From Candidatus Magasanikiibacteriota bacterium (GTDB lineage Bacteria; Patescibacteriota; Patescibacteriia; Magasanikbacterales; UBA922), in contig JAKITS010000001.1 of NCBI GenBank assembly GCA_021648085.1, positions 452,948 through 516,947 of the forward strand: a stretch of 64,000 nucleotides of DNA, read 5' to 3'. Position 1 is the first letter of the stretch, and every line of letters begins with the position of its first letter. Below the pieces are notes generated by a model. That model was not told the origin of the DNA, ran no database searches, and worked only from the letters and a program-made list of their open reading frames with translations. A program made the translations under genes and the position numbers. Shown piece after piece: positions 6,186 through 59,684 of this stretch.

Positions 6186-6812
6186 TTGTATGAACAAGGA
6201 TTACGAACGAAAATAATGTATCCTCAACCAATTCACAGACTCAAAAATGCACTAAAAAAATTACCAGGCGTAGGCCATAGAACTGCTGAACGCTATATTT
6301 TTTATTTGTTAAAATCTGGAAAAGGTGAGGTTGCAGAGCTTATAAATGCACTGAACAATGTCATACAAAATGTAAAAAGTTGTCAAATTTGTTGGGATTT
6401 TGGAAATACTGACCCCTGCTCAATCTGTATGAATCCCAAAAAAGATAGGACAAAAATTTGTGTCGTTGCAGAATCGCAACACACAAAAACAATACTAAAC
6501 ACAACTAAATACAATGGGCTTTTTCATGTATTACGAGGAACTCTTAGTTCTGAAGTGGACAATTTAGAGCAGTTAAAAATTGAAAGTCTACTAAAAAGAA
6601 TAATAATGAACCCGCAAGTAAATGAAATAATTCTTGCATTAAACCCAGATTTAGAAGGTGAGACTACAATTTTGTATTTATCCAAAAAAATACACGAAAT
6701 AAGAGAAATTAAAATAACTCGTTTGGCTCGTGGACTTCCAATGGGAAGTGATATGCTTTATGCGGACGACATTACACTATCAAATGCATTAGACAACAGA
6801 ACAGTAAGTTAA
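6186..6812 (+). CDS. recR: recombination protein RecR
   Basis: HhH motif LPGVGHRTAERY. C4 zinc finger CQICWDFGNTDPCSIC. Toprim region ICVVAESQHTKTI. The true start may be the internal ATG at 6216 (MYPQPIHRL…). Confidence 0.9.
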   Translation: MYEQGLRTKIMYPQPIHRLKNALKKLPGVGHRTAERYIFYLLKSGKGEVAELINALNNVIQNVKSCQICWDFGNTDPCSICMNPKKDRTKICVVAESQHTKTILNTTKYNGLFHVLRGTLSSEVDNLEQLKIESLLKRIIMNPQVNEIILALNPDLEGETTILYLSKKIHEIREIKITRLARGLPMGSDMLYADDITLSNALDNRTVS

Positions 6813-6831: not shown

Positions 6832-6860
6832 ACAAAAACCCGCATTTCGCGGGTTTTTTT
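6832..6860. terminator. bidirectional Rho-independent terminator (A-run/hairpin/T-run)
   Basis: aaaaa-cccgc-atttc-gcggg-ttttttt lies immediately 3' of both recR (+) and the giant surface protein gene (-). It is also part of duplicated segment copy 1. Confidence 0.65.
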
Positions 6861-6866
6861 ATGTTT

Positions 6867-9800
6867 TTATTTTAACTCTTTTCCTATTTCGTATTCTTCA
6901 TCATTTTTTATCGTCACTATTCTATCCCACCTAAAATTCAATCTACTAAAGGCTTCCTCGTTTTTAATATGTCTTTTTACTTGTTTTGTCTGGTCTGTTA
7001 GGTCTGGCTCTAGCCTAAATACTTCTGGGTTATTTTCATATTTAACAAGTGTGTAGTTTGGATGGCGATTTGTATAATCTATTATCTCACCAATTGTGTA
7101 TTTATTGAGAAGTCTTGGGTCAATATCTTCTATCCAATTCCAACTATAGTTTAGCTTATTAAATACTTCTTCAGAGTCTATCCAATATTTTTGATTACCA
7201 AGAAGTAGGTACACCATTGGATCTGTTGTTATTTTTACGAGAGCACCATATTTTGGATCATATTTTGGACCCCAAGGCATAAAACCTAAAGTGTCATCTT
7301 CTACTGTTTCTAGTCTTTTCTCTTCTACTATCTCCACATTATTCCAAGAGTCAAAGTATGTGTAGAAAACATCTGCCCTACTAAAAGCTCTTTTTTTACA
7401 GTCTGGTGTAACAAGATATACGGCAGAAGAGTTTGGTGTTTTATATACTCCACCTTCTTTTAGACTGCAGTCTGAACCTTGTTTTTCTGTTTGAGTATCA
7501 GTCTCAGTTTCTGTATTTAACTCATTTAACAGAATTGTGTCAAAATATGTTGATGCTGTTCCACCGCTTGAAAGAAATTTAGAATAAACAGTTTTTTCTC
7601 CATTTCCAGAAGGCAGTTTCCAGTTTAATTTTGAGGTAAATGGTGTAAATACTGAACCAGCAAAATCTTTTGAATTTGAAACTGCCATTCTATCTGCATC
7701 TAATATGTTAAAAGTTATAGTTACATCTCTTGACTCTGTTGTATAAGCTCCATAATTTATTACAACTGGATTAGAAATTTCTGATTCATCTGTTAAATTT
7801 ATTAGATTAATTTTCACAGAATCATAATTTAAAAACTCTGCATACTCTATTTCCAAATCTAAAACTCCATCTTTGTTTGTGTCTACTTTTTGACTCACAC
7901 CCTTTATTAGGTTCAATATAATTGGGTCTGACTCAATTGTTACCGTAATACTCTCTTTTGCTATTCTAGAGACAAACACACTATGAAAAGAAGCTCCAAC
8001 TTCTGCAGATTTTTCTTCTTGCAGGAAAAACTCTGTAAATAATAATCCTGACGATACACTTTCCGTAGCTGGAGTTTTGGATGGAGTTGGTGGTGGTGCA
8101 AAGAATCCACCGCCGGTAGACGCAACATCGTCATCTGTAATAGTTGCGGTTACACTTGCGATAGTTAAGCTGTCAAAGTTAGAGTCTGAGCTTGCAGATG
8201 TGTTTGAGATTATAGTTGTAGTCTCGCCATCAACCTCGCTATCATCTGTAGCTGTGACTGTCACAGTTTGTTCTGTATCCCAATTTGCATTTGTAAAGGT
8301 GAGGTCAGAGGAAGAAAGACTAACTTCTGAGTTTGATAGTGCGGCTGACACAGTTACATCGTCCGTAGGTTGTGCGTCTAAAACCGCAGTGTATGTGTCA
8401 GTTGTTGACCCTTCTGTCACAGAAACAGACGAAAGAGAGATTGTAACTCCTGCTGTATCATTGTTTGTAATTGTATATGTGTAAGTTGTAGTAGAACCTA
8501 GCGAACCTCCAACAGGGTTTGATATTGTTATTATTAGAGTTTCATCATTTTCAACCAAGTCATCATCTACTACAACCAAACTCAAAGAAGTTGTTGTGTT
8601 TCCATTTGTAATTGAAGCCGTTCCGCTAGAAAGTGTGTAATCTGTTCCACTTCCTGTTGCTGTTCCTCCTGTTATTGCATAATCTACTGAGACATCACTT
8701 ACTACACTTTGATCTGAAGAAATTAAGACAGAGACTGCTGTTGTTCCCTCATCTCCAGAAGCTGTGGTTGCAGAAAAATTAATCTCATAATCAAACTGCC
8801 AACGAGTATTATTTCCAGAATCACTACAACCGGTTGTACATACTATTTGTGTACTACTTAAGTTATTATTATCTTTTACATCTAGATATTGTGCGCTCGT
8901 TGTACTTTTTGGATCAAACTTTGTCTGTGTTCCAGAGCTACTACTTCTTAGGCTCAAAAGATTTCCAGATGTTCCTGCCAAAGTTAGAGTTCCATTTACT
9001 GTTGTGGTCGTACTAGCTGGAAGTGTAAAAGTGTTTGCAGATGAGTCTGTTTTAGTTAGGTTATAAAAAGTATTTGCACCAGAAATTGTCTGGCTTGCGC
9101 CAACAAAGTCTACCGTACTTGAGTTTGGTGTAAGTGTACCTCCTGTGTTTAGGAAGTCTCCTGTTATATTTAATGTTCCAGTTGCTGAATATATTCCAGA
9201 TGCCAAAGTTATATCATTATTTATATTTGTTGTTGCAACACTCGGAGCCAAACTATCTCCAGAATCTGTAAAATTTATAGAAATATCATAAAAATCCACA
9301 ATAGAAGTAGAATAAGCATCTGAACTTGCATCACCATTTCCAACATATTCTACTGTTCCTGAATCTGTGTCATTTGTAAGTGTTACAGTCTCACCTCCTT
9401 GAATACGAAGTGTTCCATCGTTGCTAAATGTACTTGAAACAGTTAAATTATTTCCATTTAATGCGACTGTTCCAGAGCTAATTGTCATTGTGCTTGTAGC
9501 TACCGTACTCGTATTGAATGTATATGTTCCACCTCCTGTGAAAGAAACATCATAAAAAGTTGAAAAACTTGGAAGAGTGTATGAACTAGCTCCATAAAAT
9601 ATAGCTGAACTTCCAGAGCTAAAACTAGGATAAGTTGCGTTTGTTGTAACAGTCTCACCACCTTGCATTTTTAAAATTCCACCATCTTGTACCACTACTG
9701 TTCCAGAAGATCCATTTACTATTAAAGTATTTCCGTTTAGGTCTAAGGTTCCTTCTATTATGTTTAAATCTGTATTCGCATAATCCATTGTTAAACCAGA

Positions 9801-12248
9801 ATTTAATGTGACAGTTCCTGATGATTTATTTATGTTTATATCTGAATTTATTTTATCTTCCACTCCTGTTAAATCTATTGTCTGATCTTGGGTTCCCGTT
9901 AGGTTGAATGTGGCCACATCTAAATTGTCAAATGTGCTGGCCATTGAAAAGTTTGTTCCAGTAAATTCTAATATATTACCAGGCATCCTACCATCAATAA
10001 GATTTAAAGTAGAAGAAACTACTAATGTATCTCCTGAAGCAATAGTGACTGTTTGACCACTATCTCCTTCTATTGTTAAGTTTGTAAAAGTAAAAGTTGT
10101 TGGTACATCTATAGTTGCTGATGTTGAATGAGTATAATATAATGTAGTTCCATTTTCATAAACAGTAGCACCAGCTCCAATAGTAAGATTGTAAACAAGA
10201 CTTGTTGTTCCGGTTGGGAATGTAAAAGTTCCGCCTGTAATAAAAAGACCCTCGTAAATATATGTGATTGAAAGATCACCTGTTCCACCATCGAAAGTAC
10301 CTCCAGAAACTATTAAAGCCCTATAACTTTCCATTAATGCACTTTGCATATTGAAAGTTCCACCAGAGATATTTATAGCATAGGAGTTAAAATCCAAATA
10401 GTTTGAATTTTGAGCATCAAAAGTTCCTCCTGTCATTGTAAAAGCACCGTTAAACACAATGTCAGTAGAACTTGCGTTTATTGTTCCAGCTTCTAAATTT
10501 AAAGTACTTTCAAAAGTAGTAGAAGCTACACCAGAAAATTCTATTGTTGTATTCGTTGCGTTTAGTGTAAATTTAGGCATATCGACATCTGCTGGAATTA
10601 TTATATTCCTTGTGTCTGTTCCTGTTATTTTGAGAAGTCCTGTTCCACCATCAAATGTAGTGGCCATAGAAAATCCACTTCCAGGACCTATAAATTCAAA
10701 AGTACCTGAACCATCCAAAGCACCATCAACTAAATTTAAAGTAGAAGAAACTACTAATGTATCTCCTGAAGCCATGCTCACTGTTTGATTAGTACTTCCA
10801 TCAATTATAAAGTTTGTAAAAGTAAAAGTTGTTGGTACATCTATAGTTGCTGATATTGAATGAGTATAATATAATGTAGTTCCATTTTCATAAACAGTAG
10901 CAGTTGCACCAATTGTTAAATTTCTTTTTAAAGTTGTTGTTCCTGTTGGGAATGTAAAAGTTCCTCCTGAAATTGTAAGATTTGCATATGTATATTGAAT
11001 TGTAAGATTTCCTGTTCCACCATCGAAAGTTCCTCCAGAAACTGTTAAAGTGTTATAACTTTCCATTAATGCACTTTGTAAACTAAAAATACCACCTGAT
11101 ATAGTGGTAGAGCCATTAATATCCAAATAATTTGAGTTTTGTGCATCAAAAGTTCCTCCTGTCATTATAATAGATTTAAAGCTTATATCCGTAGAGCTTG
11201 CATTTATAGTACCAGCATCCAAATATAAATAACCTTCAAAAGTTGTAGACGCTACTCCAGAAAATTCTATTGTTGTGTTTACTGCGTCCAATCTAAGTAA
11301 AGGAAGCTTAACATTTGCATCAAGTATAATATTTCTTGTTTCTACTCCTGATATCTTAAGCTGTCCAGATGATGCAGAAGATCCGCCATCAAATGTTGTA
11401 GCCAAAGAAAAACCACTCCCAGGACCTGTAAATTCTAAAACTCCAGTGCCATCTAGCTCTCCGTCTATAAGCGTAAGAGTGGAAGAGACTATTACAGTGT
11501 CACCAGTATAAATAGCTAACCGCTGACCGCTTCCACCAGCAATTGTAAGGTTTGTAAAAGTAAAAGTTGTTGGAACATTTAAAACAGCACTAGTTATAAA
11601 AGTCATTATCAAATTTGTGCCATTTTCATATACAGTAGCACCAGCTCCAATAGTTAAATCGTCTGTAATAGTTGTTGTTCCGGTTGGGAATGTAAAAGTT
11701 CCACCTGAAATTGTAAGATCTGCATAACTATACTGGAATATCATAGTTCCTGTTCCACCATCGAAAGTACCTCCTGAGAAAACGAAATTATTATATGGTT
11801 CGAATACTGAAGATTGCATATTAAATGTACCTCCTGAAATTGTAGTAGATCCATTAATATCAATAATCGTATCCCCTGCATTAAATGTGCCATCAGCCTG
11901 TGTAAAATTTCCAGTAGTAAGCGTAACACCTGTTGCAACAGTAATAGTCCCAGAATAACCAGCATCTATTTGAAAAGTTGTGACAGTAGAATCAACATCA
12001 ATAGTTGCATTGTCCACATCTCCACCATCAAAAATAGCTATGTCTCCAGAAATAGGATGAGTAGTATCATTTGCCCCACCGGTTGTGGTGGACCAATTTG
12101 TGTCAGCAGAAAAATTTCCTCCAGAAGTTCCTATCCAATATTTGGTGGCTGCTTGTGACGCCGTAGGAATTAGTGAAAAAAATAAAAATAAAAAAATAAA
12201 AAAGAATAATTTTCTATACAAAAAATTATTTTTAGGTTTAGCTATCAT
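6867..12248 (-). CDS. giant secreted repeat protein (1793 aa): signal peptide, 4x ~190-aa beta-helix-like GGTF repeats, Calx-beta-like domains, Pro-rich linker, ~400-aa C-terminal domain; putative adhesin/surface protein
   Basis: N-terminal signal peptide MIAKPKNNFLYRKLFFFIFLFLFFSLIPTASQA. Repeated blocks ISGGTF(N/D)…GGTG…LTISGGTFTFPTGTT…LTIGAGATVYENGT. Calx-beta-like segment …LVVVDDDLVENDETLIITISNPVGGSLG. Linker GGGFFAPPPTPSKTP. Confidence 0.85.
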   Translation of the reverse strand: MIAKPKNNFLYRKLFFFIFLFLFFSLIPTASQAATKYWIGTSGGNFSADTNWSTTTGGANDTTHPISGDIAIFDGGDVDNATIDVDSTVTTFQIDAGYSGTITVATGVTLTTGNFTQADGTFNAGDTIIDINGSTTISGGTFNMQSSVFEPYNNFVFSGGTFDGGTGTMIFQYSYADLTISGGTFTFPTGTTTITDDLTIGAGATVYENGTNLIMTFITSAVLNVPTTFTFTNLTIAGGSGQRLAIYTGDTVIVSSTLTLIDGELDGTGVLEFTGPGSGFSLATTFDGGSSASSGQLKISGVETRNIILDANVKLPLLRLDAVNTTIEFSGVASTTFEGYLYLDAGTINASSTDISFKSIIMTGGTFDAQNSNYLDINGSTTISGGIFSLQSALMESYNTLTVSGGTFDGGTGNLTIQYTYANLTISGGTFTFPTGTTTLKRNLTIGATATVYENGTTLYYTHSISATIDVPTTFTFTNFIIDGSTNQTVSMASGDTLVVSSTLNLVDGALDGSGTFEFIGPGSGFSMATTFDGGTGLLKITGTDTRNIIIPADVDMPKFTLNATNTTIEFSGVASTTFESTLNLEAGTINASSTDIVFNGAFTMTGGTFDAQNSNYLDFNSYAINISGGTFNMQSALMESYRALIVSGGTFDGGTGDLSITYIYEGLFITGGTFTFPTGTTSLVYNLTIGAGATVYENGTTLYYTHSTSATIDVPTTFTFTNLTIEGDSGQTVTIASGDTLVVSSTLNLIDGRMPGNILEFTGTNFSMASTFDNLDVATFNLTGTQDQTIDLTGVEDKINSDININKSSGTVTLNSGLTMDYANTDLNIIEGTLDLNGNTLIVNGSSGTVVVQDGGILKMQGGETVTTNATYPSFSSGSSAIFYGASSYTLPSFSTFYDVSFTGGGTYTFNTSTVATSTMTISSGTVALNGNNLTVSSTFSNDGTLRIQGGETVTLTNDTDSGTVEYVGNGDASSDAYSTSIVDFYDISINFTDSGDSLAPSVATTNINNDITLASGIYSATGTLNITGDFLNTGGTLTPNSSTVDFVGASQTISGANTFYNLTKTDSSANTFTLPASTTTTVNGTLTLAGTSGNLLSLRSSSSGTQTKFDPKSTTSAQYLDVKDNNNLSSTQIVCTTGCSDSGNNTRWQFDYEINFSATTASGDEGTTAVSVLISSDQSVVSDVSVDYAITGGTATGSGTDYTLSSGTASITNGNTTTSLSLVVVDDDLVENDETLIITISNPVGGSLGSTTTYTYTITNNDTAGVTISLSSVSVTEGSTTDTYTAVLDAQPTDDVTVSAALSNSEVSLSSSDLTFTNANWDTEQTVTVTATDDSEVDGETTTIISNTSASSDSNFDSLTIASVTATITDDDVASTGGGFFAPPPTPSKTPATESVSSGLLFTEFFLQEEKSAEVGASFHSVFVSRIAKESITVTIESDPIILNLIKGVSQKVDTNKDGVLDLEIEYAEFLNYDSVKINLINLTDESEISNPVVINYGAYTTESRDVTITFNILDADRMAVSNSKDFAGSVFTPFTSKLNWKLPSGNGEKTVYSKFLSSGGTASTYFDTILLNELNTETETDTQTEKQGSDCSLKEGGVYKTPNSSAVYLVTPDCKKRAFSRADVFYTYFDSWNNVEIVEEKRLETVEDDTLGFMPWGPKYDPKYGALVKITTDPMVYLLLGNQKYWIDSEEVFNKLNYSWNWIEDIDPRLLNKYTIGEIIDYTNRHPNYTLVKYENNPEVFRLEPDLTDQTKQVKRHIKNEEAFSRLNFRWDRIVTIKNDEEYEIGKELK

Positions 12249-12337
12249 ATATAAAAATCTCTATTAATCTTTTAATTATATCTTTTAATTACAATAATAT
12301 CAAATTGGGAATTGTGAATAAAAAATTATTAAAAATA

Positions 12338-12364
12338 AAAAAAGACGCTCAGCGTCTTTTTTTT
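12338..12364. terminator. Rho-independent terminator of rplU (hairpin gacgc-tca-gcgtc flanked by A- and T-runs)
   Basis: aaaaaaagacgctcagcgtctttttttt, 12 nt 3' of the rplU stop. This is the last element inside duplication copy 1. Confidence 0.6.
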
Positions 12365-12377
12365 AACTGAAATATTT

Positions 12378-12704
12378 TTAAGCGATTTCAGTAATTTTAA
12401 TTTTTGTAAAATGTTGTCTGTGTCCAAAAACTTTTTTATAGCGTATTTTTCTTTTGTATTTTACTACACGAACTTTTTTACTACGACCGTTTTCTTCTAC
12501 TGTAGCTTTTACAATAGCACCTTCAACAATAGGTGTTCCAACTTTTACATCTCCACCCTCTTCGTTTGCAAGCAAGTAAACTTTATCAAAAGTAACTTCC
12601 TCACCTTCATTTATATCTAATTTTTCTACTTTTAGAACGCTTCCCACCTTCACAAGGTATTGCTTTCCACCAGTTTCTATAACTGCAATCATATACGTAA
12701 ACAT
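12378..12704 (-). CDS. rplU: 50S ribosomal protein L21
   Basis: MIAVIETGGKQYLVKVGSVLKVEKL…VRVVKYKRKIRYKKVFGHRQHFTKIKI matches the L21 family throughout. No rpmA (L27) follows it. Confidence 0.9.
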   Translation of the reverse strand: MFTYMIAVIETGGKQYLVKVGSVLKVEKLDINEGEEVTFDKVYLLANEEGGDVKVGTPIVEGAIVKATVEENGRSKKVRVVKYKRKIRYKKVFGHRQHFTKIKITEIA

Positions 12705-26609: not shown

Positions 26610-27041
26610 ATGGAGGTAAAAATGGACACGCAGGTTGAATCAGTGGATTATATTTCTATTTTTCTAATGACTTTGGTAAATTCTTTAATAGAATCTACAT
26701 ATACAATTGCCATATATTTTTTATGTTTTTCTGTGTTTATCTTTTTTGTAGTATTTTTAGTTAGAGAAATACTCAAAAAAAGACTTAGGGAAGAAGTACT
26801 CATAATACTTTATCTAAACAGATGTTTTATAAATTCAGAAAAAAGTTTTCCTTTTACAAGAATAAGAAGTGAAATGAGTTTCAAAAAAGATATTAAACCA
26901 AAACAAATTGCAAAATTACTAGCAAATTTGATATATCGAGAGCTAATTCAAGAGGTAAAAGATAGAAAAAATAGTTTATATTGGAATGAAAAACACTACG
27001 CACTCACCCAAAAAGGTAGAAATTTGTTCATAAGTACTTGA
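26610..27041 (+). CDS. hypothetical small membrane protein with possible C-terminal winged-helix-like segment
   Basis: ORF with two hydrophobic helices, then …KQIAKLLANLIYRELIQEVKD…YALTQKGRNLF. Weak. Confidence 0.4.
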   Translation: MEVKMDTQVESVDYISIFLMTLVNSLIESTYTIAIYFLCFSVFIFFVVFLVREILKKRLREEVLIILYLNRCFINSEKSFPFTRIRSEMSFKKDIKPKQIAKLLANLIYRELIQEVKDRKNSLYWNEKHYALTQKGRNLFIST

Positions 27042-27219
27042 CAAATATTAAAAAATAGAGTAGTAAAGACTCACTACTTAGAATATCAAGATCATTTGAT
27101 AATTTAAGTAGGTACGAATACAAAAAACCTACAACCGACAGTCTTGTCTCTGGAATCTGTCATGGCTCCAAAGACAAAGCCCCGCTACTTTCTAGGTAGT
27201 GGGGTTCTTTTTTATTGTT

Positions 27220-27424
27220 ATCATATTGAGCGGAGTGAAACGGAGTTGAAAACCCAATGCACGTCATATTGAGTGGAGTGAAACGGAGTCGAAATATCTC
27301 GATTTAATTTCATTAGAACTTTGAATATTTTATGTTTTGGTGATGATACTGTCCCGAGATCCTTCGGCTTCGCTCAGGATGACGTGTGGGATTTTTGTCA
27401 TCCCCAACTTGATTGGGGATCCCC
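27220..27424. repeat. cluster of MITE-like repeats: partial copy 27220-27262, full ~130-bp element 27260-27390 (cacgtcatattgagYggagtgaaacggagtcgaaatatctcg … cgagatccttcggcttcgctcaggatgacgtgtg), solo gtcatccccaacttgattggggatcc 27399-27424
   Basis: Same termini (cacgtcat..tgagcg / cgctcaggatgacgtg) as the elements at 21351-21557 and 29740-29873. Confidence 0.6.
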
Positions 27425-27570
27425 GCCTACCGGCGGACAAACAAAATTTATATAATAGTGTAATTATTATAGTTTATATATTTTTATATAAAAATAATTC
27501 TGATTTGTAGACTCTGGATTCCCGATCGGGGTCGGGAATAACAATACATATCCAGTTTTATTTTCATGTC

Positions 27571-29638: not shown

Positions 29639-29939
29639 CACGTCATATTGAGCTTGACTGGGGATCCAGGGTTTATATCACAGTTCTATTTTGTATACTC
29701 TGGATTCCCAGTCAAGCTGAGAATGACAGAAAACTTTTTCATGTCATATTGAGCGGAGTGAAACGGAGTCGAAATATCTTGGGACTATATCATTAGAACT
29801 TTGAATATTCAGTCTTCTAATGTTTTTGTTTCGAGATTCTTCGGCTGTCGCTCAGGATGGCGTGATAGAAAGGTGATATTGTCTCGAGATCCATTCTACT
29901 TCATTCCACTTTGCCTCATTCCGCTCAGGATGACATGTG
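29639..29939. repeat. cluster of three MITE-like repeats: 29639-29729 (~91 bp, TIR cacgtcatattgagcttgactggggatcc / ggattcccagtcaagctgagaatgacag), 29740-29873 (~134 bp, near-identical to 27260-27390 element), partial 29883-29939
   Basis: Direct sequence comparison. These fill the whole uvrB-rnj intergenic region. Confidence 0.6.
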
Positions 29940-30011
29940 TTGAATTTTCTTATTTTCTTTTTTTACTTTTTAATTTATAAACTTTTTAACTTCCTTTCTC
30001 TATCTAATCTG

Positions 30012-45559: not shown

Positions 45560-46033
45560 TTATTTATTTACTATCACTCTAGCAACTTTCAAAACCTTGT
45601 CGCCAACCTTATAACCAACACCAACTTCTTTCAAAATTTTTCCACTTTCAAACTCTTCTGAATCTTCCTCACTTACAGCCTCGTGAAATTCTGGATTAAA
45701 ATCTTCTCCAACAGTTTTTATTACTTCTATCCCATTTTGAGTCAAAATATCTTCAAACTGTTTCATTATAAATCCAATTCCTTTTGACCAACTCTCCCAA
45801 TTCTTGTCTTCTGGCAAATTGTCTTTATGTGCAAAAGCTGTTGTAAAATTATCAAATACTGGTAAAAAATCTTCTATTACTTGAACCTTACTCATCTTTG
45901 CCCAAACAATTCTTTGCTCAGAAACTTCCTTTTGCAAATTCTGATAATCAGCCTGCGCGCGTAAAGCCATATTTTTATATTCCTGTATTTTACTTTTCTT
46001 TTTTGCAGGTTTTATTATTTTTTCTTTTTTCAT
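45560..46033 (-). CDS. grpE: nucleotide exchange factor GrpE
   Basis: Coiled-coil N-terminal part. C-terminal …FEDILTQNGIEVIKTVGEDFNPEFHEAV…GYKVGDKVLKVARVIV is typical of GrpE. Confidence 0.85.
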   Translation of the reverse strand: MKKEKIIKPAKKKSKIQEYKNMALRAQADYQNLQKEVSEQRIVWAKMSKVQVIEDFLPVFDNFTTAFAHKDNLPEDKNWESWSKGIGFIMKQFEDILTQNGIEVIKTVGEDFNPEFHEAVSEEDSEEFESGKILKEVGVGYKVGDKVLKVARVIVNK

Positions 46034-46707
46034 AATTTACTAATCAAAAATTTTAATATAGCTATATTTTTCTCATAATCCATTCTAGTTGGACCAATCA
46101 ATATAAACAAACCCTCTTCTCCAAATCTTGCAATAATACTAGAGCAAGATGAGCCGAGCGGATTTTCTCTACCTATTAAAACACTCGTTTTATTCTGCTC
46201 TATTTTACCCAAAAGATTATAAACTATTTCTTCACATTTATCAAACATTACAGATGTGTTTAGAGTATTTATATGATTTTTAAATTCTGGCTGTGAAAAT
46301 AAATTGGAAATTCCTGTGTAGTAAACAGAATTACTATTAAAAGCCACAAAAACGGCATTGTTTAAAAATTCTGCAACCTCTTGAGCTATTTTTTTTACCC
46401 TATCGCAACCTTCAAAATTCACTATTTCACTTTTTTCCAACACTTCCTTAAACTCACCAATTCCTACTGGTTTTATTATATTCTCAACATAAAACTTATA
46501 CCCTTTTTCTGTAGGAATTCTTCCTGCAGAAGTATGAGGATGAGTCAAAAATCCTTCAGATTCAAGCTCTCGCATCTCATTTCGAACTGTCGGTGCACTT
46601 ACATCCAAACTCCCGCTGTTTGCTAAGAATTTAGATCCAACTGGCTCTACAGTTTTTATATAATTTTCTATGATAAGTTTTAGTAATTTTTTCTTTCTTT
46701 CTTTCAT
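46030..46707 (-). CDS. hrcA: heat-inducible transcription repressor HrcA (short form)
   Basis: N-terminal wHTH …VEPVGSKFLANSGSLDVSAPTVRNEMRELESEGFLTHPHTSAGRIPTEKGY. Its position upstream of grpE (4-nt overlap). Confidence 0.8.
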   Translation of the reverse strand: MKERKKKLLKLIIENYIKTVEPVGSKFLANSGSLDVSAPTVRNEMRELESEGFLTHPHTSAGRIPTEKGYKFYVENIIKPVGIGEFKEVLEKSEIVNFEGCDRVKKIAQEVAEFLNNAVFVAFNSNSVYYTGISNLFSQPEFKNHINTLNTSVMFDKCEEIVYNLLGKIEQNKTSVLIGRENPLGSSCSSIIARFGEEGLFILIGPTRMDYEKNIAILKFLISKL

Positions 46708-46710
46708 ATA

Positions 46711-46737
46711 TTATCACTCTAACCTATTGAGTGATAA
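46711..46737 (-). promoter_or_regulatory. CIRCE operator variant TTATCACTC-N9-GAGTGATAA (HrcA binding site)
   Basis: Perfect 9-bp inverted repeat with a 9-nt spacer, 3 nt upstream of the hrcA ATG. One substitution per arm relative to canonical TTAGCACTC-N9-GAGTGCTAA. Confidence 0.7.
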
Positions 46738-46764: not shown

Positions 46765-46815
46765 GAAAAAATAATAATAGAGTATTTTACAAACTCTATT
46801 ATTAATAAAAACATA

Positions 46816-49800
46816 AAAAAACCCGCATTTCGCGGGTTTTTTATGTTTTTATTTTAACTCTTTTCCTATTTCGTATTCTTCATCATTTTTTATCGTCACT
46901 ATTCTATCCCACCTAAAATTCAATCTACTAAAGGCTTCCTCGTTTTTAATATGTCTTTTTACTTGTTTTGTCTGGTCTGTTAGGTCTGGCTCTAGCCTAA
47001 ATACTTCTGGGTTATTTTCATATTTAACAAGTGTGTAGTTTGGATGGCGATTTGTATAATCTATTATCTCACCAATTGTGTATTTATTGAGAAGTCTTGG
47101 GTCAATATCTTCTATCCAATTCCAACTATAGTTTAGTTTATTAAATACTTCTTCAGAGTCTATCCAATATTTTTGATTACCAAGAAGTAGGTACACCATT
47201 GGATCTGTTGTAATTTTTACAAGAGCACCATATTTTGGATCATATTTTGGACCCCAAGGCATAAAACCTAAAGTGTCATCTTCTACTGTTTCTAGTCTTT
47301 TCTCTTCTACTATCTCCACATTATTCCAAGAGTCAAAGTATGTGTAGAAAACATCTGCCCTACTAAAAGCTCTTTTTTTACAGTCTGGTGTAACAAGATA
47401 TACGGCAGAAGAGTTTGGTGTTTTATATACTCCACCTTCTTTTAGACTGCAGTCTGAACCTTGTTTTTCTGTTTGAGTATCAGTCTCAGTTTCTGTATTT
47501 AACTCATTTAACAGAATTGTGTCAAAATATGTTGATGCTGTTCCACCGCTTGAAAGAAATTTAGAATAAACAGTTTTTTCTCCATTTCCAGAAGGCAGTT
47601 TCCAGTTTAATTTTGAGGTAAATGGTGTAAATACTGAACCAGCAAAATCTTTTGAATTTGAAACTGCCATTCTATCTGCATCTAATATGTTAAAAGTTAT
47701 AGTTACATCTCTTGACTCTGTTGTATAAGCTCCATAATTTATTACAACTGGATTAGAAATTTCTGATTCATCTGTTAAATTTATTAGATTAATTTTCACA
47801 GAATCATAATTTAAAAACTCTGCATACTCTATTTCCAAATCTAAAACTCCATCTTTGTTTGTGTCTACTTTTTGACTCACACCCTTTATTAGGTTCAATA
47901 TAATTGGGTCTGACTCAATTGTTACCGTAATACTCTCTTTTGCTATTCTAGAGACAAACACACTATGAAAAGAAGCTCCAACTTCTGCAGATTTTTCTTC
48001 TTGCAGGAAAAACTCTGTAAATAATAATCCTGACGATACACTTTCCGTAGCTGGAGTTTTGGATGGAGTTGGTGGTGGTGCAAAGAATCCACCGCCGGTA
48101 GACGCAACATCGTCATCTGTAATAGTTGCGGTTACACTTGCGATAGTTAAGCTGTCAAAGTTAGAGTCTGAGCTTGCAGATGTGTTTGAGATTATAGTTG
48201 TAGTCTCGCCATCAACCTCGCTATCATCTGTAGCTGTGACTGTCACAGTTTGTTCTGTATCCCAATTTGCATTTGTAAAGGTGAGGTCAGAGGAAGAAAG
48301 ACTAACTTCTGAGTTTGATAGTGCGGCTGACACAGTTACATCGTCCGTAGGTTGTGCGTCTAAAACCGCAGTGTATGTGTCAGTTGTTGACCCTTCTGTC
48401 ACAGAAACAGACGAAAGAGAGATTGTAACTCCTGCTGTATCATTGTTTGTAATTGTATATGTGTAAGTTGTAGTAGAACCTAGCGAACCTCCAACAGGGT
48501 TTGATATTGTTATTATTAGAGTTTCATCATTTTCAACCAAGTCATCATCTACTACAACCAAACTCAAAGAAGTTGTTGTGTTTCCATTTGTAATTGAAGC
48601 CGTTCCGCTAGAAAGTGTGTAATCTGTTCCACTTCCTGTTGCTGTTCCTCCTGTTATTGCATAATCTACTGAGACATCACTTACTACACTTTGATCTGAA
48701 GAAATTAAGACAGAGACTGCTGTTGTTCCCTCATCTCCAGAAGCTGTGGTTGCAGAAAAATTAATCTCATAATCAAACTGCCAACGAGTATTATTTCCAG
48801 AATCACTACAACCGGTTGTACATACTATTTGTGTACTACTTAAGTTATTATTATCTTTTACATCTAGATATTGTGCGCTCGTTGTACTTTTTGGATCAAA
48901 CTTTGTCTGTGTTCCAGAGCTACTACTTCTTAGGCTCAAAAGATTTCCAGATGTTCCTGCCAAAGTTAGAGTTCCATTTACTGTTGTGGTCGTACTAGCT
49001 GGAAGTGTAAAAGTGTTTGCAGATGAGTCTGTTTTAGTTAGGTTATAAAAAGTATTTGCACCAGAAATTGTCTGGCTTGCGCCAACAAAGTCTACCGTAC
49101 TTGAGTTTGGTGTAAGTGTACCTCCTGTGTTTAGGAAGTCTCCTGTTATATTTAATGTTCCAGTTGCTGAATATATTCCAGATGCCAAAGTTATATCATT
49201 ATTTATATTTGTTGTTGCAACACTCGGAGCCAAACTATCTCCAGAATCTGTAAAATTTATAGAAATATCATAAAAATCCACAATAGAAGTAGAATAAGCA
49301 TCTGAACTTGCATCACCATTTCCAACATATTCTACTGTTCCTGAATCTGTGTCATTTGTAAGTGTTACAGTCTCACCTCCTTGAATACGAAGTGTTCCAT
49401 CGTTGCTAAATGTACTTGAAACAGTTAAATTATTTCCATTTAATGCGACTGTTCCAGAGCTAATTGTCATTGTGCTTGTAGCTACCGTACTCGTATTGAA
49501 TGTATATGTTCCACCTCCTGTGAAAGAAACATCATAAAAAGTTGAAAAACTTGGAAGAGTGTATGAACTAGCTCCATAAAATATAGCTGAACTTCCAGAG
49601 CTAAAACTAGGATAAGTTGCGTTTGTTGTAACAGTCTCACCACCTTGCATTTTTAAAATTCCACCATCTTGTACCACTACTGTTCCAGAAGATCCATTTA
49701 CTATTAAAGTATTTCCGTTTAGGTCTAAGGTTCCTTCTATTATGTTTAAATCTGTATTCGCATAATCCATTGTTAAACCAGAATTTAATGTGACAGTTCC

Positions 49801-52357
49801 TGATGATTTATTTATGTTTATATCTGAATTTATTTTATCTTCCACTCCTGTTAAATCTATTGTCTGATCTTGGGTTCCCGTTAGGTTGAATGTGGCCACA
49901 TCTAAATTGTCAAATGTGCTGGCCATTGAAAAGTTTGTTCCAGTAAATTCTAATATATTACCAGGCATCCTACCATCAATAAGATTTAAAGTAGAAGAAA
50001 CTACTAATGTATCTCCTGAAGCAATAGTGACTGTTTGACCACTATCTCCTTCTATTGTTAAGTTTGTAAAAGTAAAAGTTGTTGGTACATCTATAGTTGC
50101 TGATGTTGAATGAGTATAATATAATGTAGTTCCATTTTCATAAACAGTAGCACCAGCTCCAATAGTAAGATTGTAAACAAGACTTGTTGTTCCGGTTGGG
50201 AATGTAAAAGTTCCGCCTGTAATAAAAAGACCCTCGTAAATATATGTGATTGAAAGATCACCTGTTCCACCATCGAAAGTACCTCCAGAAACTATTAAAG
50301 CCCTATAACTTTCCATTAATGCACTTTGCATATTGAAAGTTCCACCAGAGATATTTATAGCATAGGAGTTAAAATCCAAATAGTTTGAATTTTGAGCATC
50401 AAAAGTTCCTCCTGTCATTGTAAAAGCACCGTTAAACACAATGTCAGTAGAACTTGCGTTTATTGTTCCAGCTTCTAAATTTAAAGTACTTTCAAAAGTA
50501 GTAGAAGCTACACCAGAAAATTCTATTGTTGTATTCGTTGCGTTTAGTGTAAATTTAGGCATATCGACATCTGCTGGAATTATTATATTCCTTGTGTCTG
50601 TTCCTGTTATTTTGAGAAGTCCTGTTCCACCATCAAATGTAGTGGCCATAGAAAATCCACTTCCAGGACCTATAAATTCAAAAGTACCTGAACCATCCAA
50701 AGCACCATCAACTAAATTTAAAGTAGAAGAAACTACTAATGTATCTCCTGAAGCCATGCTCACTGTTTGATTAGTACTTCCATCAATTATAAAGTTTGTA
50801 AAAGTAAAAGTTGTTGGTACATCTATAGTTGCTGATATTGAATGAGTATAATATAATGTAGTTCCATTTTCATAAACAGTAGCAGTTGCACCAATTGTTA
50901 AATTTCTTTTTAAAGTTGTTGTTCCTGTTGGGAATGTAAAAGTTCCTCCTGAAATTGTAAGATTTGCATATGTATATTGAATTGTAAGATTTCCTGTTCC
51001 ACCATCGAAAGTTCCTCCAGAAACTGTTAAAGTGTTATAACTTTCCATTAATGCACTTTGTAAACTAAAAATACCACCTGATATAGTGGTAGAGCCATTA
51101 ATATCCAAATAATTTGAGTTTTGTGCATCAAAAGTTCCTCCTGTCATTATAATAGATTTAAAGCTTATATCCGTAGAGCTTGCATTTATAGTACCAGCAT
51201 CCAAATATAAATAACCTTCAAAAGTTGTAGACGCTACTCCAGAAAATTCTATTGTTGTGTTTACTGCGTCCAATCTAAGTAAAGGAAGCTTAACATTTGC
51301 ATCAAGTATAATATTTCTTGTTTCTACTCCTGATATCTTAAGCTGTCCAGATGATGCAGAAGATCCGCCATCAAATGTTGTAGCCAAAGAAAAACCACTC
51401 CCAGGACCTGTAAATTCTAAAACTCCAGTGCCATCTAGCTCTCCGTCTATAAGCGTAAGAGTGGAAGAGACTATTACAGTGTCACCAGTATAAATAGCTA
51501 ACCGCTGACCGCTTCCACCAGCAATTGTAAGGTTTGTAAAAGTAAAAGTTGTTGGAACATTTAAAACAGCACTAGTTATAAAAGTCATTATCAAATTTGT
51601 GCCATTTTCATATACAGTAGCACCAGCTCCAATAGTTAAATCGTCTGTAATAGTTGTTGTTCCGGTTGGGAATGTAAAAGTTCCACCTGAAATTGTAAGA
51701 TCTGCATAACTATACTGGAATATCATAGTTCCTGTTCCACCATCGAAAGTACCTCCTGAGAAAACGAAATTATTATATGGTTCGAATACTGAAGATTGCA
51801 TATTAAATGTACCTCCTGAAATTGTAGTAGATCCATTAATATCAATAATCGTATCCCCTGCATTAAATGTGCCATCAGCTTGTGTAAAATTTCCAGTAGT
51901 AAGCGTAACACCTGTTGCAACAGTAATAGTCCCAGAATAACCAGCATCTATTTGAAAAGTTGTAACAGTAGAATCAACATCAATAGTTGCATTGTCCACA
52001 TCTCCACCATCAAAAATAGCTGTGTCTCCAGAAACAGGATGAGTAGTATCATTTGCCCCACCGGTTGTGGTGGACCAATTTGTGTCAGCAGAAAAATTTC
52101 CTCCAGAAGTTCCTATCCAATATTTGGTGGCTGCTTGTGACGCCGTAGGAATTAGTGAAAAAAATAAAAATAAAAAAATAAAAAAGAATAATTTTCTATA
52201 CAAAAAATTATTTTTAGGTTTAGCTATCATATATAAAAATAAATAAAAATCTCTATTAATCTTTTAATTATATCTTTTAATTACAATAATATCAAATTGG
52301 GAATTGTGAATAAAAAATTATTAAAAACAAAAAAAGACGCTCAGCGTCTTTTTTTTA
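46816..52357. repeat. segmental duplication copy 2 (~5.54 kb) of 6834-12364
   Basis: Same as copy 1. Includes a second copy of the rplU-type terminator hairpin (52336-52357) although no rplU is nearby. Confidence 0.9.
46849..52230 (-). CDS. giant secreted repeat protein, paralog 2 (1793 aa; 2 aa substitutions vs copy 1)
   Basis: Identical architecture to 6867-12248. The differences I could find are I66V and I70T plus synonymous changes. Confidence 0.85.
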   Translation of the reverse strand: MIAKPKNNFLYRKLFFFIFLFLFFSLIPTASQAATKYWIGTSGGNFSADTNWSTTTGGANDTTHPVSGDTAIFDGGDVDNATIDVDSTVTTFQIDAGYSGTITVATGVTLTTGNFTQADGTFNAGDTIIDINGSTTISGGTFNMQSSVFEPYNNFVFSGGTFDGGTGTMIFQYSYADLTISGGTFTFPTGTTTITDDLTIGAGATVYENGTNLIMTFITSAVLNVPTTFTFTNLTIAGGSGQRLAIYTGDTVIVSSTLTLIDGELDGTGVLEFTGPGSGFSLATTFDGGSSASSGQLKISGVETRNIILDANVKLPLLRLDAVNTTIEFSGVASTTFEGYLYLDAGTINASSTDISFKSIIMTGGTFDAQNSNYLDINGSTTISGGIFSLQSALMESYNTLTVSGGTFDGGTGNLTIQYTYANLTISGGTFTFPTGTTTLKRNLTIGATATVYENGTTLYYTHSISATIDVPTTFTFTNFIIDGSTNQTVSMASGDTLVVSSTLNLVDGALDGSGTFEFIGPGSGFSMATTFDGGTGLLKITGTDTRNIIIPADVDMPKFTLNATNTTIEFSGVASTTFESTLNLEAGTINASSTDIVFNGAFTMTGGTFDAQNSNYLDFNSYAINISGGTFNMQSALMESYRALIVSGGTFDGGTGDLSITYIYEGLFITGGTFTFPTGTTSLVYNLTIGAGATVYENGTTLYYTHSTSATIDVPTTFTFTNLTIEGDSGQTVTIASGDTLVVSSTLNLIDGRMPGNILEFTGTNFSMASTFDNLDVATFNLTGTQDQTIDLTGVEDKINSDININKSSGTVTLNSGLTMDYANTDLNIIEGTLDLNGNTLIVNGSSGTVVVQDGGILKMQGGETVTTNATYPSFSSGSSAIFYGASSYTLPSFSTFYDVSFTGGGTYTFNTSTVATSTMTISSGTVALNGNNLTVSSTFSNDGTLRIQGGETVTLTNDTDSGTVEYVGNGDASSDAYSTSIVDFYDISINFTDSGDSLAPSVATTNINNDITLASGIYSATGTLNITGDFLNTGGTLTPNSSTVDFVGASQTISGANTFYNLTKTDSSANTFTLPASTTTTVNGTLTLAGTSGNLLSLRSSSSGTQTKFDPKSTTSAQYLDVKDNNNLSSTQIVCTTGCSDSGNNTRWQFDYEINFSATTASGDEGTTAVSVLISSDQSVVSDVSVDYAITGGTATGSGTDYTLSSGTASITNGNTTTSLSLVVVDDDLVENDETLIITISNPVGGSLGSTTTYTYTITNNDTAGVTISLSSVSVTEGSTTDTYTAVLDAQPTDDVTVSAALSNSEVSLSSSDLTFTNANWDTEQTVTVTATDDSEVDGETTTIISNTSASSDSNFDSLTIASVTATITDDDVASTGGGFFAPPPTPSKTPATESVSSGLLFTEFFLQEEKSAEVGASFHSVFVSRIAKESITVTIESDPIILNLIKGVSQKVDTNKDGVLDLEIEYAEFLNYDSVKINLINLTDESEISNPVVINYGAYTTESRDVTITFNILDADRMAVSNSKDFAGSVFTPFTSKLNWKLPSGNGEKTVYSKFLSSGGTASTYFDTILLNELNTETETDTQTEKQGSDCSLKEGGVYKTPNSSAVYLVTPDCKKRAFSRADVFYTYFDSWNNVEIVEEKRLETVEDDTLGFMPWGPKYDPKYGALVKITTDPMVYLLLGNQKYWIDSEEVFNKLNYSWNWIEDIDPRLLNKYTIGEIIDYTNRHPNYTLVKYENNPEVFRLEPDLTDQTKQVKRHIKNEEAFSRLNFRWDRIVTIKNDEEYEIGKELK

Positions 52358-52369
52358 TTTTTGTGTGTT

Positions 52370-52963
52370 TTATTCTGCTATTTTTTTGTATTCATTTACA
52401 CTTCCAATTTCACTTAAAAGTATATTTTCCACAAAAATTCCACGAGGGTAAAAAATTCTTTCTATTTCATTTTTTAATTCTGTCTCAACCTCATCTCTTT
52501 TTACACCTACTATTTCTTCTTGTGTAAATTTACTTGCAACCATTCGAATACGACTTCTTACAGTTGGACGAATTATTTTTATTACAAAATCTTCTCCTAT
52601 TGTTTGCCACAAAGATGGGATTTGTTGAATATCCAAACGAAGTAGAATTGTTCCCTCAAAAGCAATGCGTTTTGCATCTTTTGTGACAGCCGATATTGGA
52701 ATATCTCCCATTGCTTTTTCATGCTCTGGGTTAAATTTACGAGAAATTCCATACTCCAAAGTTTGTGTATTAAAAAGCTTGGCTTTTTGCCAAAATGGTA
52801 TTTTGAAATGTAATCCTGGAGTCAAAACCTTTTTCAATACTCCACGACCAAGATCATAAACACATGCAACATATCCAGGTGGTACATAAATAAAGAAGCC
52901 TTTTAGGACATCTTCCATTACAAATGAGTACATTAATTTATCTAGTGACTCTTCTTGAGACAT
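52370..52963 (-). CDS. SPFH/band-7 (prohibitin/stomatin-like) domain protein, possibly C-terminally truncated
   Basis: …VPPGYVACVYDLGRGVLKKVLTPGLHFKIPFWQKAKLFNTQTLE… is typical of the SPFH domain. The protein ends (…NEYKKIAE*) where the coiled-coil region normally begins. The stop lies 13 nt from the duplication boundary. Confidence 0.65.
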   Translation of the reverse strand: MSQEESLDKLMYSFVMEDVLKGFFIYVPPGYVACVYDLGRGVLKKVLTPGLHFKIPFWQKAKLFNTQTLEYGISRKFNPEHEKAMGDIPISAVTKDAKRIAFEGTILLRLDIQQIPSLWQTIGEDFVIKIIRPTVRSRIRMVASKFTQEEIVGVKRDEVETELKNEIERIFYPRGIFVENILLSEIGSVNEYKKIAE

Positions 52964-58213: not shown

Positions 58214-58729
58214 CTATCTACTCAGCTCTACCTCTGCGCTAAGCTCGTGCTCACAAGCACGAATAGTCACAAGATCTGCAGATGATTTTTCCAGAGTATA
58301 ACCTGTAATAGATGCAGACCAAGCACCGTCTCCATTTGGACTAATAGGGATTGAGCCCAAGTATCCCTGTGTCACCATATCTGAAATATCCACACAGACA
58401 GACTGTGTTGGATCTGTAGTACAAAAACTTGTCACATTTGAAGCTGTAGCCCCAGTCACACAAGTTCCGATAAGATAAACCTGCCCAACAGTTGTGTTTG
58501 TAATTGTAGTAAGGTATGTACCGCCGTTGTCAATTTGATCCACCTTAACAGCCTGAAGAATGTTATTTACATCTGAAAATCTTCTTGCATCTCTTGCATC
58601 TTTAAAACGCTTTGCAGGATTTAGAGCTACAAAAATTAAAAGAGCCAGAATTGCAATAATTGCAATAACTAAAAGTAATTCGATTAAAGTAAAACCTTTT
58701 CTTTTTTCTAAGTACTCTTTAATTTTCAT
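58214..58729 (-). CDS. type IV pilin-like protein (class III signal peptide)
   Basis: MKIKEYLEKRKGFTLIELLLVIAIIAILALLIFVAL is a prepilin cleavage/methylation motif G|FTLIELL. C-terminal Cys pair. Confidence 0.8.
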   Translation of the reverse strand: MKIKEYLEKRKGFTLIELLLVIAIIAILALLIFVALNPAKRFKDARDARRFSDVNNILQAVKVDQIDNGGTYLTTITNTTVGQVYLIGTCVTGATASNVTSFCTTDPTQSVCVDISDMVTQGYLGSIPISPNGDGAWSASITGYTLEKSSADLVTIRACEHELSAEVELSR

Positions 58730-58849
58730 AAAAAAATAACGAAATAATAATACATACATTATACCACAAAATAAAAAATATTTAAATTTATAAGACAAAA
58801 CAAAAAACAAGCCTTATGCTTGTTTTTTGTTTTTGAAGTTTTTTGAAAA

Positions 58850-59365
58850 CTAACGAGTTAAAGTAATCTCTGTTGTGTTCTCATCTTCACAAGCTCTAAT
58901 AGTTACAGACCCATTTGCAGCTTTTGCAATAGTGTATCCTGTGTTTGCAGCTGACCATGTTGCGGTACCATCAGGACTTATAGGAATAGATCCTAAATAA
59001 CCATCTGTCACAAGTCCGGTTAAGTCTGCACAAGCATCTTGAGTTGGTTCTGTTGTACAAAGATAATTTGTTACTGTGGTTGTTGCTCCAGTAGTACAAG
59101 TACCGACCATATAAACCTCGGAAGCTGTCGCACTAGTAATACTAGCTAGGTACGGACCTTTATTATCCACCTGGTCAACCTTAATTGCGGTCAAAATATT
59201 ATTTACATCCGAGAACCTTCTTGAATCACGAGCGTCTGCAAACCTAGTTGCAGGATCTAACGCTACAAAAATTAAAAGAGCCAAAATCGCAATAATTGCG
59301 ATTACCAAAAGCAATTCGATTAAAGTGAAACCTTTTGCTTTTGCCAAAGTTTTTTTCATTTGCAT
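58850..59365 (-). CDS. type IV pilin-like protein, paralog of 58214-58729
   Basis: MQMKKTLAKAKGFTLIELLLVIAIIAILALLIFVAL. Same N-terminal 40 aa as its neighbour but a divergent C-terminal domain. Confidence 0.8.
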   Translation of the reverse strand: MQMKKTLAKAKGFTLIELLLVIAIIAILALLIFVALDPATRFADARDSRRFSDVNNILTAIKVDQVDNKGPYLASITSATASEVYMVGTCTTGATTTVTNYLCTTEPTQDACADLTGLVTDGYLGSIPISPDGTATWSAANTGYTIAKAANGSVTIRACEDENTTEITLTR

Positions 59366-59684
59366 ATGCTATGAATTATATAAATAATAATTAATAAATA
59401 ATCTTACGAATTTAATTATACCATATTTATTAATTTTTTTTATATTAGACTTGTGTATAACTTACAAATTCTCCTCGTATAGATGCATTTCTAGACTATT
59501 AAAATAAACTGATTTTTTAGTATGTTTTTATATTATAATTGTGCATTTCATAAACATAGATAATACATATAATTTATAAAATTTTATTTATAAGTTCTAT
59601 TCAAGAAACTATCAAAAAAATATCCTGTTGGATATTTTTGTACACTCCAAAAGAATCTCACTACTCACCTCTTCGGGTTGCGCT

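Follow-up and report, generated by a model that had tools for sequence, protein, structure and literature searches.

A 5.5-kb surface-protein gene cassette in two near-identical copies in a Candidatus Magasanikbacteria genome

The duplicated cassette and its protein

The 64-kb window analysed here (the whole 64,000-nucleotide stretch, from contig JAKITS010000001.1) belongs to a metagenome-assembled genome (MAG) entered in GenBank as Candidatus Magasanikbacteria bacterium, a bacterium of the Candidate Phyla Radiation (CPR), in keeping with a first-pass annotation that had taken the source for a reduced-genome bacterium. Two direct repeats of about 5.5 kb lie in it, each with a complete gene for a large surface protein (the giant gene, in the shorthand used below), and both genes are on the same 984,181-bp contig. 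BLASTN and MAFFT alignments place copy 1 at window positions 6834–12365 and copy 2 at 46817–52357, in the same orientation with a spacing of 39,982–39,992 bp, and homology is lost sharply at either edge. The copies are 99.66% identical over 5,542 alignment columns, or 99.86% when substitutions alone are counted. They differ by eight substitutions (positions 7155, 7230, 7239, 11898, 11982, 12040, 12053 and 12336), seven of which are transitions, by a T7/T6 indel at 6854 within a terminator run, and by a 10-bp quasi-tandem insertion in copy 2 immediately 5′ of the ATG. Each copy contains a minus-strand open reading frame (ORF) of 5,382 nt encoding 1,793 aa; I66V and I70T set the two proteins apart, and the remaining five coding changes are synonymous. 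The first-pass annotation had described two complete direct copies, their content, these same differences and the flanking genes, all of which stand, with coordinates off by no more than 1 nt. A 5.5-kb repeat this similar cannot be due to chance, and we consider it highly probable that two genuine copies are present in the genome. Exact-sequence look-ups of both proteins found no second assembly of the same organism in the searched collections, where the next-best matches are 88% identical for RecR, 95% for the SPFH protein and 64% for the giant protein.

Read along the gene strand, the cassette consists of a hairpin (hairpin 2, A-run-GACGC-TGA-GCGTC-T-run), a sigma-70-type promoter, a short 5′ untranslated region (UTR), the ORF and a second hairpin (hairpin 1, A-run-CCCGC-GAAAT-GCGGG-T-run), and the edges of the repeat coincide with the outer ends of the A-run and T-run. 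Both hairpins are positive in terminator scoring, in copy 2 on both strands, and throughout the source genome terminators usually take this form, a hairpin between an A-run and a T-run. The promoter, TTGATA-17 nt-TATAAT, is the region's best sigma-70-type match, with 11 of 12 consensus positions, and its blocks CAATTTGATA and GATA.AAT are invariant across relatives. By Pfam, copy 1 is preceded by ybaB and recR on the plus strand and followed by rplU, DUF192 and GT4 genes on the minus strand, and copy 2 lies between grpE and hrcA on one side and SPFH, yidC and cca on the other, all on the minus strand. Coordinates are collected in Table 1.

The repeat edges are 0.92% diverged, while the giant orthologues of the closest relatives are just 53–64% identical in amino acid sequence (compared with 99.9% between the copies), and the duplication is therefore young. 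The explanation that probably accounts best for the locus is that a self-contained expression cassette for a secreted surface protein was recently duplicated to a distant site. This is a phenomenon of a known kind, dispersed gene duplication followed by concerted evolution.

The secreted, adhesin-like character proposed for the protein in the first-pass annotation is upheld; its domain order runs from a signal peptide through three beta-helix-like repeats, a conserved middle region, and Calx-beta and Ig-like domains to a C-terminal module. By eye, the N-terminus has the look of a signal peptide, with basic residues and a hydrophobic stretch ahead of ASQA|A. Residues ~130–750 comprise three ~245-aa repeats in which T, S, G and N are abundant. 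Both this repeat region and the conserved middle region recur in homologues from Patescibacteria, Omnitrophota and elsewhere, some of which carry PF05860 or PF12951, or have FHA-family or autotransporter adhesin names in JGI; the sequence of the repeats and the homologues with PF05860 or PF12951 suggest a right-handed beta-helix. The sole curated domain in Pfam and NCBIfam is a Calx-beta (PF03160, residues 1156–1262, 45.9 bits against a cut-off of 27), and this region has PDB sequence matches to the CBD domains of Na/Ca exchangers. The same two databases give no match in the protein to the two-partner-secretion domain (PF05860) or to a C-terminal beta-barrel translocator. The protein probably works like a beta-helical surface adhesin, but stands outside the two-partner-secretion and autotransporter families.

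The C-terminal 204 residues (1590–1793) form a strongly conserved module with two invariant Cys and no Pfam match. Several proteins with this module are present in each Magasanikbacteria genome (loci L002–L013), and an exhaustive search finds it in 1,724 representative clusters, 251 of them at E<=1e-30, either at the end of proteins of 230–4,666 aa or directly after a signal peptide. An AlphaFold2 model of the module (predicted local distance difference test score, pLDDT, 71 overall and 80–89 over the first 135 residues) has three [beta-beta-beta-alpha-beta-alpha] units and resembles, with modest scores, the cell-wall-binding folds of PlyCB, an endolysin and EccB; four paralogues (L002, L004, L005 and L007) have a PG_binding_1-like tail after the module. 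The best reading, with moderate confidence, is that the module is a non-covalent cell-wall anchor. A 399-residue model is poor (pLDDT 59), and a Foldseek search with it against the PDB returned generic Ig/FnIII matches alone.

The giant gene is the fastest evolving of its neighborhood, with 53–64% amino acid identity to relatives against 80–95% for the neighboring genes, a divergence that fits a surface-exposed protein. The orthologues also vary in modules, with a LamG insertion in L030 and L017 and several extra Calx/cadherin-like repeats in P0002, and the L030 orthologue starts at the equivalent of residue 365. The giant locus is structurally plastic among relatives.

The ancestral locus and the derived insertion

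Related genomes keep the order SPFH–giant–hrcA and have an empty recR|rplU site, and we therefore conclude with high confidence that copy 2, at the SPFH–hrcA locus, is ancestral and that copy 1 is a derived insertion. Behind the closest giant homologue, P0002 on contig L016, come hrcA (80% amino acid identity) and the start of grpE, both on its strand. In 13 contigs of relatives (L026–L039), drawn from at least 10 metagenomes, cca-yidC-SPFH is followed ~205 nt on by a giant homologue; these homologues are 53–61% identical to the window protein and the accompanying SPFH protein is 95% identical. The complete SPFH–giant–hrcA locus is present on L030, and the giant–hrcA adjacency on two contigs of relatives (L034 and L036, which part from the window ~1.4 kb into the giant gene, were left out for the hrcA side). 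The empty recR|rplU site is found on eight contigs, L018–L023 with RecR 88% identical and L024 and L025 with RecR 70% identical, and its recR–rplU gap of 58 nt or 29 nt holds one bidirectional terminator and no giant gene. Around it, dnaB-ybaB-recR faces rplU-DUF192-GT4...clpB, matching window 4205–17985 gene for gene at 80–88% amino acid identity. The empty site and the SPFH–giant locus were both recovered from the same four samples.

The spacers are consistent with this polarity. In the SPFH–giant spacer of the relatives a terminator hairpin lies directly after SPFH and is followed by CAATTTGATA and GATA.AAT, and the two window copies align to this spacer with their hairpin 2 and promoter. 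In the giant–hrcA spacer, hairpin 1 corresponds by position to the giant terminator of the relatives, and after it come the conserved hrcA promoter and an inverted repeat resembling CIRCE (controlling inverted repeat of chaperone expression). A scan of GTDB genomes returned only paralogues with the C-terminal module, none with shared synteny. A candidate second giant locus in the relatives (L017, beside an aldose epimerase gene) was rejected as unproven: L017 is 94–96% identical to L016, its homology to the SPFH locus begins ~96 nt past the SPFH stop codon, its coverage is just 3.5x, and its 3′ end may be chimeric.

The insertion itself is evident from the comparison with relatives, and its mechanism is suggested by the sequence of the junctions. 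The cassette was copied in direct orientation, ~40 kb away, into the 30–60-nt spacer between the convergent recR and rplU genes, displacing the single resident bidirectional terminator, and the imported hairpins now terminate recR and rplU. The flanks left at the copy 1 site are ~21 nt and ~12 nt, and the break points lie at hairpins bordered by homopolymer runs. Two routes can be envisaged. The cassette may have been transferred in one step, by a replicative template switch or by illegitimate joining at hairpin/homopolymer microhomology. Alternatively, a 40-kb tandem duplication may have arisen by a joint between the rplU flank and the hairpin 2 T-run; the redundant 34 kb would then have been deleted, bringing the hairpin 1 A-run up against the recR flank. 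Both routes involve two illegitimate joints and give the same product, and the sequence fits either equally.

The cassette is not a mobile element, be it an insertion sequence, a transposon or an integrative element. The unit is one ORF with Calx-beta as its sole Pfam match, its neighbors are recR, rplU, hrcA and SPFH, and Pfam scans found no transposase, integrase or recombinase gene in the unit, beside it or in the interval between the copies. There are no target-site duplications or terminal inverted repeats at the junctions, and two hairpins unrelated to each other form the ends. With the ORF intact and the promoter the same in both copies, the insertion probably had the immediate effect of doubling the gene dose for a major surface protein. 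Copy 1 is now directly downstream of rplU. As a separate observation, rplU has no rpmA after it, either in the window or at the empty site of the relatives, and a search of the window for the L27 (rpmA) motif gave no match.

The identical core and its alternatives

The differences between the copies are distributed in a striking manner. All 10 fall close to the ends of the repeat, no further than 406 bp from its left edge or 468 bp from its right one, and the widest gap between substitutions covers 4,659 of 5,532 bp (P ~4e-6 for eight randomly placed substitutions). At the divergence of the edges, 0.92%, the core should contain 42.6 substitutions and has none (P=3e-19). This non-uniform distribution points to at least two events, in which a duplication was followed by the homogenisation of 4.66 kb or more, and is consistent with the suggestion in the first-pass annotation of a recent duplication, gene conversion or both. 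In the order of events that we propose, the copies would first have diverged by ~0.9%, and non-crossover gene conversion over at least 4.66 kb would then have homogenised the interior, with the outer 406 bp and 468 bp keeping their differences. That the identical core reflects biological conversion rather than a technical effect is, on balance, the view we favor. In the tuf genes of Salmonella, conversion can begin at any point and reaches no further than the ends of homology (PMC5485169), which would make edges the parts least often converted. The genes of the interval include rplU, a MraY-like GT4 gene, clpB, rsmH, mraZ, uvrABC, murJ, lepA, recJ, dnaJ, dnaK, grpE and hrcA. Because a crossover between the direct repeats would remove these (rplU, murJ, dnaK and clpB among them), it should be lethal, and only non-crossover products would persist. 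Both recR and recJ are present in the window. The coding differences, two non-synonymous and five synonymous (P=0.012, or 0.043–0.047 with transitions only), show a synonymous bias that fits genuine mutations in two functional genes.

Several points weigh against this account. The two-copy state and the identity of the interior are those of the assembly, and the mechanism of insertion is a proposal drawn from junction anatomy. The timing depends on fairly distant relatives (the nearest with RecR 88% and giant protein 64% identical), with no conspecific found in the searched collections. The zone of ~470 bp that contains the differences corresponds roughly to the reach of paired short reads from unique flank, and the core could thus be a consensus artefact. 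Finally, the stem of hairpin 2 is unlike that of the relatives' SPFH terminator (TCCGTC...GACGGA, with a loop that is inverted among relatives, AAGA or TCTT), and hairpin 2 (GACGC-TCA-GCGTC, 12344–12356 and 52336–52348) matches the empty-site terminator of L024 (GAGGC-TTA-GCCTC, L024:1963–1975) at 10 of 13 positions, including one compensatory pair. This likeness in stem and loop may be due to chance, or may be the trace of a joint inside similar hairpins that was later spread by conversion, and it may hint at a more complex history. It also lends something to the opposite polarity, with copy 1 ancestral at recR–rplU, copy 2 derived, and hairpin 2 as the native rplU terminator; the first-pass annotation had argued in this manner, assigning the GACGCTCAGCGTC hairpin, which follows just after the rplU stop codon, to rplU. 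However, in copy 2 the same hairpin is about as near to the SPFH stop codon and so cannot discriminate between the polarities, terminators of its style are generic in the source genome, and the promoter region joined to it is homologous to the relatives' SPFH–giant spacer. With the site empty on eight contigs, SPFH–giant on 13 and giant–hrcA on two, the related genomes reverse the polarity first proposed, and an ancestral copy 1 is very improbable.

Doubts about the assembly take two forms. It could be that there is one copy, or a position that is polymorphic in the population, and that the same 5.5 kb was placed at two loci; the source is a MAG, and a 5.5-kb repeat at 99.9% identity is hard for short reads, although a contig of 984 kb points to long reads or manual curation. 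Against it, the four junctions are distinct and their flanks unique, and the 10 differing sites are located beside these flanks and show a pattern of purifying selection unlike that of random error. Moreover, the resident recR|rplU terminator of the relatives is missing, whereas a spurious insertion by an assembler would leave it in place, and an artefact of this sort seems improbable. The other form accepts the duplication as real and holds that the interior was assembled or polished as a single consensus, with phasing limited to the outer 400–470 bp by reads anchored in unique sequence, such that no conversion need be invoked and the copies may differ by ~1% throughout. The confinement of all 10 differences to the scale of a paired-end insert speaks for it; long reads, if used, would normally retain ~40 interior differences, and conversion bounded by the ends of homology gives the same pattern (PMC5485169). 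We consider a technical core unlikely, with an appreciable residual probability. A different possibility is that a single very recent duplication occurred with no conversion, and that the edge differences arose by error-prone repair synthesis near the breakpoints. Microhomology-mediated break-induced replication has been proposed to introduce errors by repair synthesis close to breakpoints, the differences do cluster by both junctions, and these are at homopolymer and hairpin sequences without target-site duplication. Nonetheless, five of the seven coding differences are synonymous, suggesting selection over time, and seven of the eight substitutions are ordinary transitions, which leaves this possibility improbable. 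There remains the proposal of the first-pass annotation that recombination between the copies feeds antigenic or host-attachment (host-range) variation, to which the rapid evolution of the gene and its modular build, with internal repeats and with LamG or Calx-beta-like indels in relatives, lend some color. It does not withstand the observation that the copies are two residues apart, and hence no reservoir of diversity, and that both are full length with identical promoters of their own. No silent cassette, invertase or long simple-sequence tract was found, and as to a switching device, the length changes are limited to the T7/T6 terminator run and the 10-bp 5′ UTR insertion. The cassette pair is not an antigenic-variation or phase-variation system, and a programmed role is scarcely credible. 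The preferred explanation remains a young duplication from the SPFH–hrcA locus, after which the copies apparently evolved in concert.

Table 1. Positions of the cassette copies, their parts and their flanking genes in the window.
Feature	Position	Strand	Basis or remark
Copy 2 of the cassette, very probably the ancestral locus, between the SPFH gene and hrcA	46817..52357	-	repeat alignment, synteny, spacer alignments
Copy 1 of the cassette, very probably the derived insertion, between recR and rplU	6834..12365	-	repeat alignment, empty site in relatives
Copy 1 ORF, 1,793 aa, L3J07_02335, MCF6276666.1	6867..12248	-	
Copy 2 ORF, 1,793 aa, L3J07_02505, MCF6276700.1	46849..52230	-	SPFH neighbor is L3J07_02510
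Hairpin 1, copy 1: bidirectional terminator A5-CCCGC-ATTTC-GCGGG-T7, ending the giant gene and now also convergent recR	6834..6858		
Hairpin 1, copy 2: positional orthologue of the relatives' giant-gene terminator (ACCGC-TTGAGG-GCGGT), upstream of the hrcA promoter	46816..46842		
Hairpin 2, copy 1: A7-GACGC-TCA-GCGTC-T8, just downstream of the rplU stop codon	12337..12363		
Hairpin 2, copy 2: just after the SPFH stop codon, where relatives have their SPFH terminator	52329..52355		
Promoter, copy 1: TTGATA-17 nt-TATAAT	12275..12303	-	
Promoter, copy 2: identical to that of copy 1	52267..52295	-	
10-bp quasi-tandem insertion, copy 2 5′ UTR, between the -10 box and the ATG	52233..52242	-	
Central 4,658 bp, 100% identical to 47222–51879; putative gene-conversion tract or technically collapsed interior	7240..11897	-	
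Three internal tandem units of ~732–738 nt (~245 aa), 69–88% nucleotide identity; GGTF-rich, beta-helix-like N-terminal region	9990..11861	-	
Calx-beta domain, residues 1156–1262	8463..8783	-	Pfam E=6.9e-12; PDB sequence matches
C-terminal conserved module, residues 1590–1793, putative cell-wall-binding anchor	6870..7481	-	
recR, left flank of copy 1	6186..6812	+	Pfam
rplU, right flank of copy 1	12378..12704	-	Pfam
hrcA, downstream of copy 2; promoter 46764->46736; CIRCE-like inverted repeat 46713–46737	46030..46707	-	
SPFH/Band-7 gene, upstream of copy 2	52370..52963	-	

Other features, wider meaning and comparison with known systems

The hrcA flank of copy 2 has two inverted repeats of its own. 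The CIRCE-like repeat, which overlaps the hrcA promoter (TTGACA-17-TATATT), reads TTATCACTC-N9-GAGTGATAA and so deviates from the canonical form, TTAGCACTC-N9-GAGTGCTAA; the relatives L016 and L030 conserve it. An AT-rich inverted repeat, AATAATAGAGT-N9-ACTCTATTATT (~46771–46801), lies between hairpin 1 and this promoter, outside the left edge of copy 2, and is absent from the corresponding spacer of L016 and L030. Elsewhere in the window, the intergenic regions around uvrB (27041–27570 and 29647–30011) are dense in short interspersed repeats, including GTCATATTGAGCGGAGTGAAACGGAGTCGAAA (three copies), CTCGAGATCC...CGCTCAGGATGAC (three copies) and ACTCTGGATTCCC (two copies), which look like repetitive extragenic palindromes or miniature inverted-repeat transposable elements and have no Rfam match. 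An inverted repeat with 50-nt arms, 80% complementary and separated by a 4-nt spacer, is located upstream of mraZ-rsmH (21094–21197). Two small tandem paralogues (58214–58810 and 58850–59365) share ~72% nucleotide identity and each has a similar downstream terminator; the relatives' counterparts of this gene pair (58214–59366) carry an N_methyl (type IV pilin-like) motif. Scans of the 64-kb window for tRNA genes and Rfam families found none.

Our findings leave the current understanding of duplication and gene conversion unchanged. What is useful here is the corrected polarity, the finding that a terminator was replaced exactly, a conversion-like signature with its technical caveat, and a widespread putative anchor module unmatched in Pfam. 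The fastest-evolving gene of a neighborhood, whose secreted and putatively wall-anchored product may have a part in cell contact, has been duplicated as an insulated cassette onto a convergent terminator, a clean and datable gene-family expansion in an otherwise streamlined ~1-Mb genome. At a practical level, the 5.5-kb exact-repeat pair will confuse read mapping, binning and single-nucleotide polymorphism calling in the source genome. A broader conjecture is that terminator-bounded cassettes are copied between terminator sites by hairpin-mediated template switching and that the C-terminal module is an undescribed Patescibacteria anchor to the envelope or the host wall; taken jointly, we regard these two propositions as doubtful. 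If cassette template switching were true, it would offer a recombinase-free means of gene-family expansion in streamlined CPR genomes, by which a symbiont doubles and later diversifies a host-contact protein with the neighboring operons undisturbed.

RecA-dependent gene conversion is known to keep dispersed duplicates alike, as in tufA/tufB of Salmonella (PMC5485169), and other long-lasting prokaryotic cases have been described (PMC6053082). As with tufA/tufB, the window contains two full-length, near-identical paralogues at distant loci, conversion would be bounded by the ends of homology, and crossover products would be counter-selected, with essential genes between the copies. In contrast to tufA/tufB, the window duplication is young, its site being empty in relatives at 88% RecR identity; the repeats are direct, and what was copied is a 5.4-kb gene for a surface protein, not a housekeeping gene. 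Conversion in the window, moreover, is inferred from one genome and could be technical.

In Salmonella and Escherichia coli, tandem duplications arise whose join points are remodelled or deleted, and short-junction duplications are found at palindromic or homopolymer sequences. The window cassette resembles such remodelled duplications in forming a direct dispersed repeat with breakpoints at hairpins and A/T runs, with no target-site duplication and no recombinase. It differs in that the intermediate is not observed, and a one-step template switch gives the same product. Adhesin paralogues that vary by gene conversion include babA/babB of Helicobacter, pilE/pilS of Neisseria, MgPa/MgPar of Mycoplasma genitalium and msp2 of Anaplasma. 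These are likewise duplicated surface-protein genes acting as intragenomic recombination substrates in host-associated bacteria, but their donors are diverged or silent, whereas the window copies are 99.9% identical and complete, each with a promoter.

The protein resembles the FHA/two-partner and autotransporter adhesins, and the very large surface proteins described from CPR and Omnitrophota (bioRxiv 10.1101/2023.11.21.568195), in its repetitive N-terminal region rich in T, S, G and N, and in its stalk of Calx-beta and Ig-like domains. By the standard of that preprint, the window protein, at 1,793 aa, is large and not 'giant', and its C-terminal anchor is of a different kind. The PlyCB-like cell-wall-binding domains with which the anchor was compared are those of PlyCB (4f87), an enterococcal endolysin (6ist and 7d55) and the EccB1 repeats (3x3m; PMC4769845). 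There is no detectable sequence similarity to these, and the structural resemblance is of modest score to a model of pLDDT 71; the window module is composed of three tandem units with a conserved Cys pair, and is predicted to bind the cell wall.

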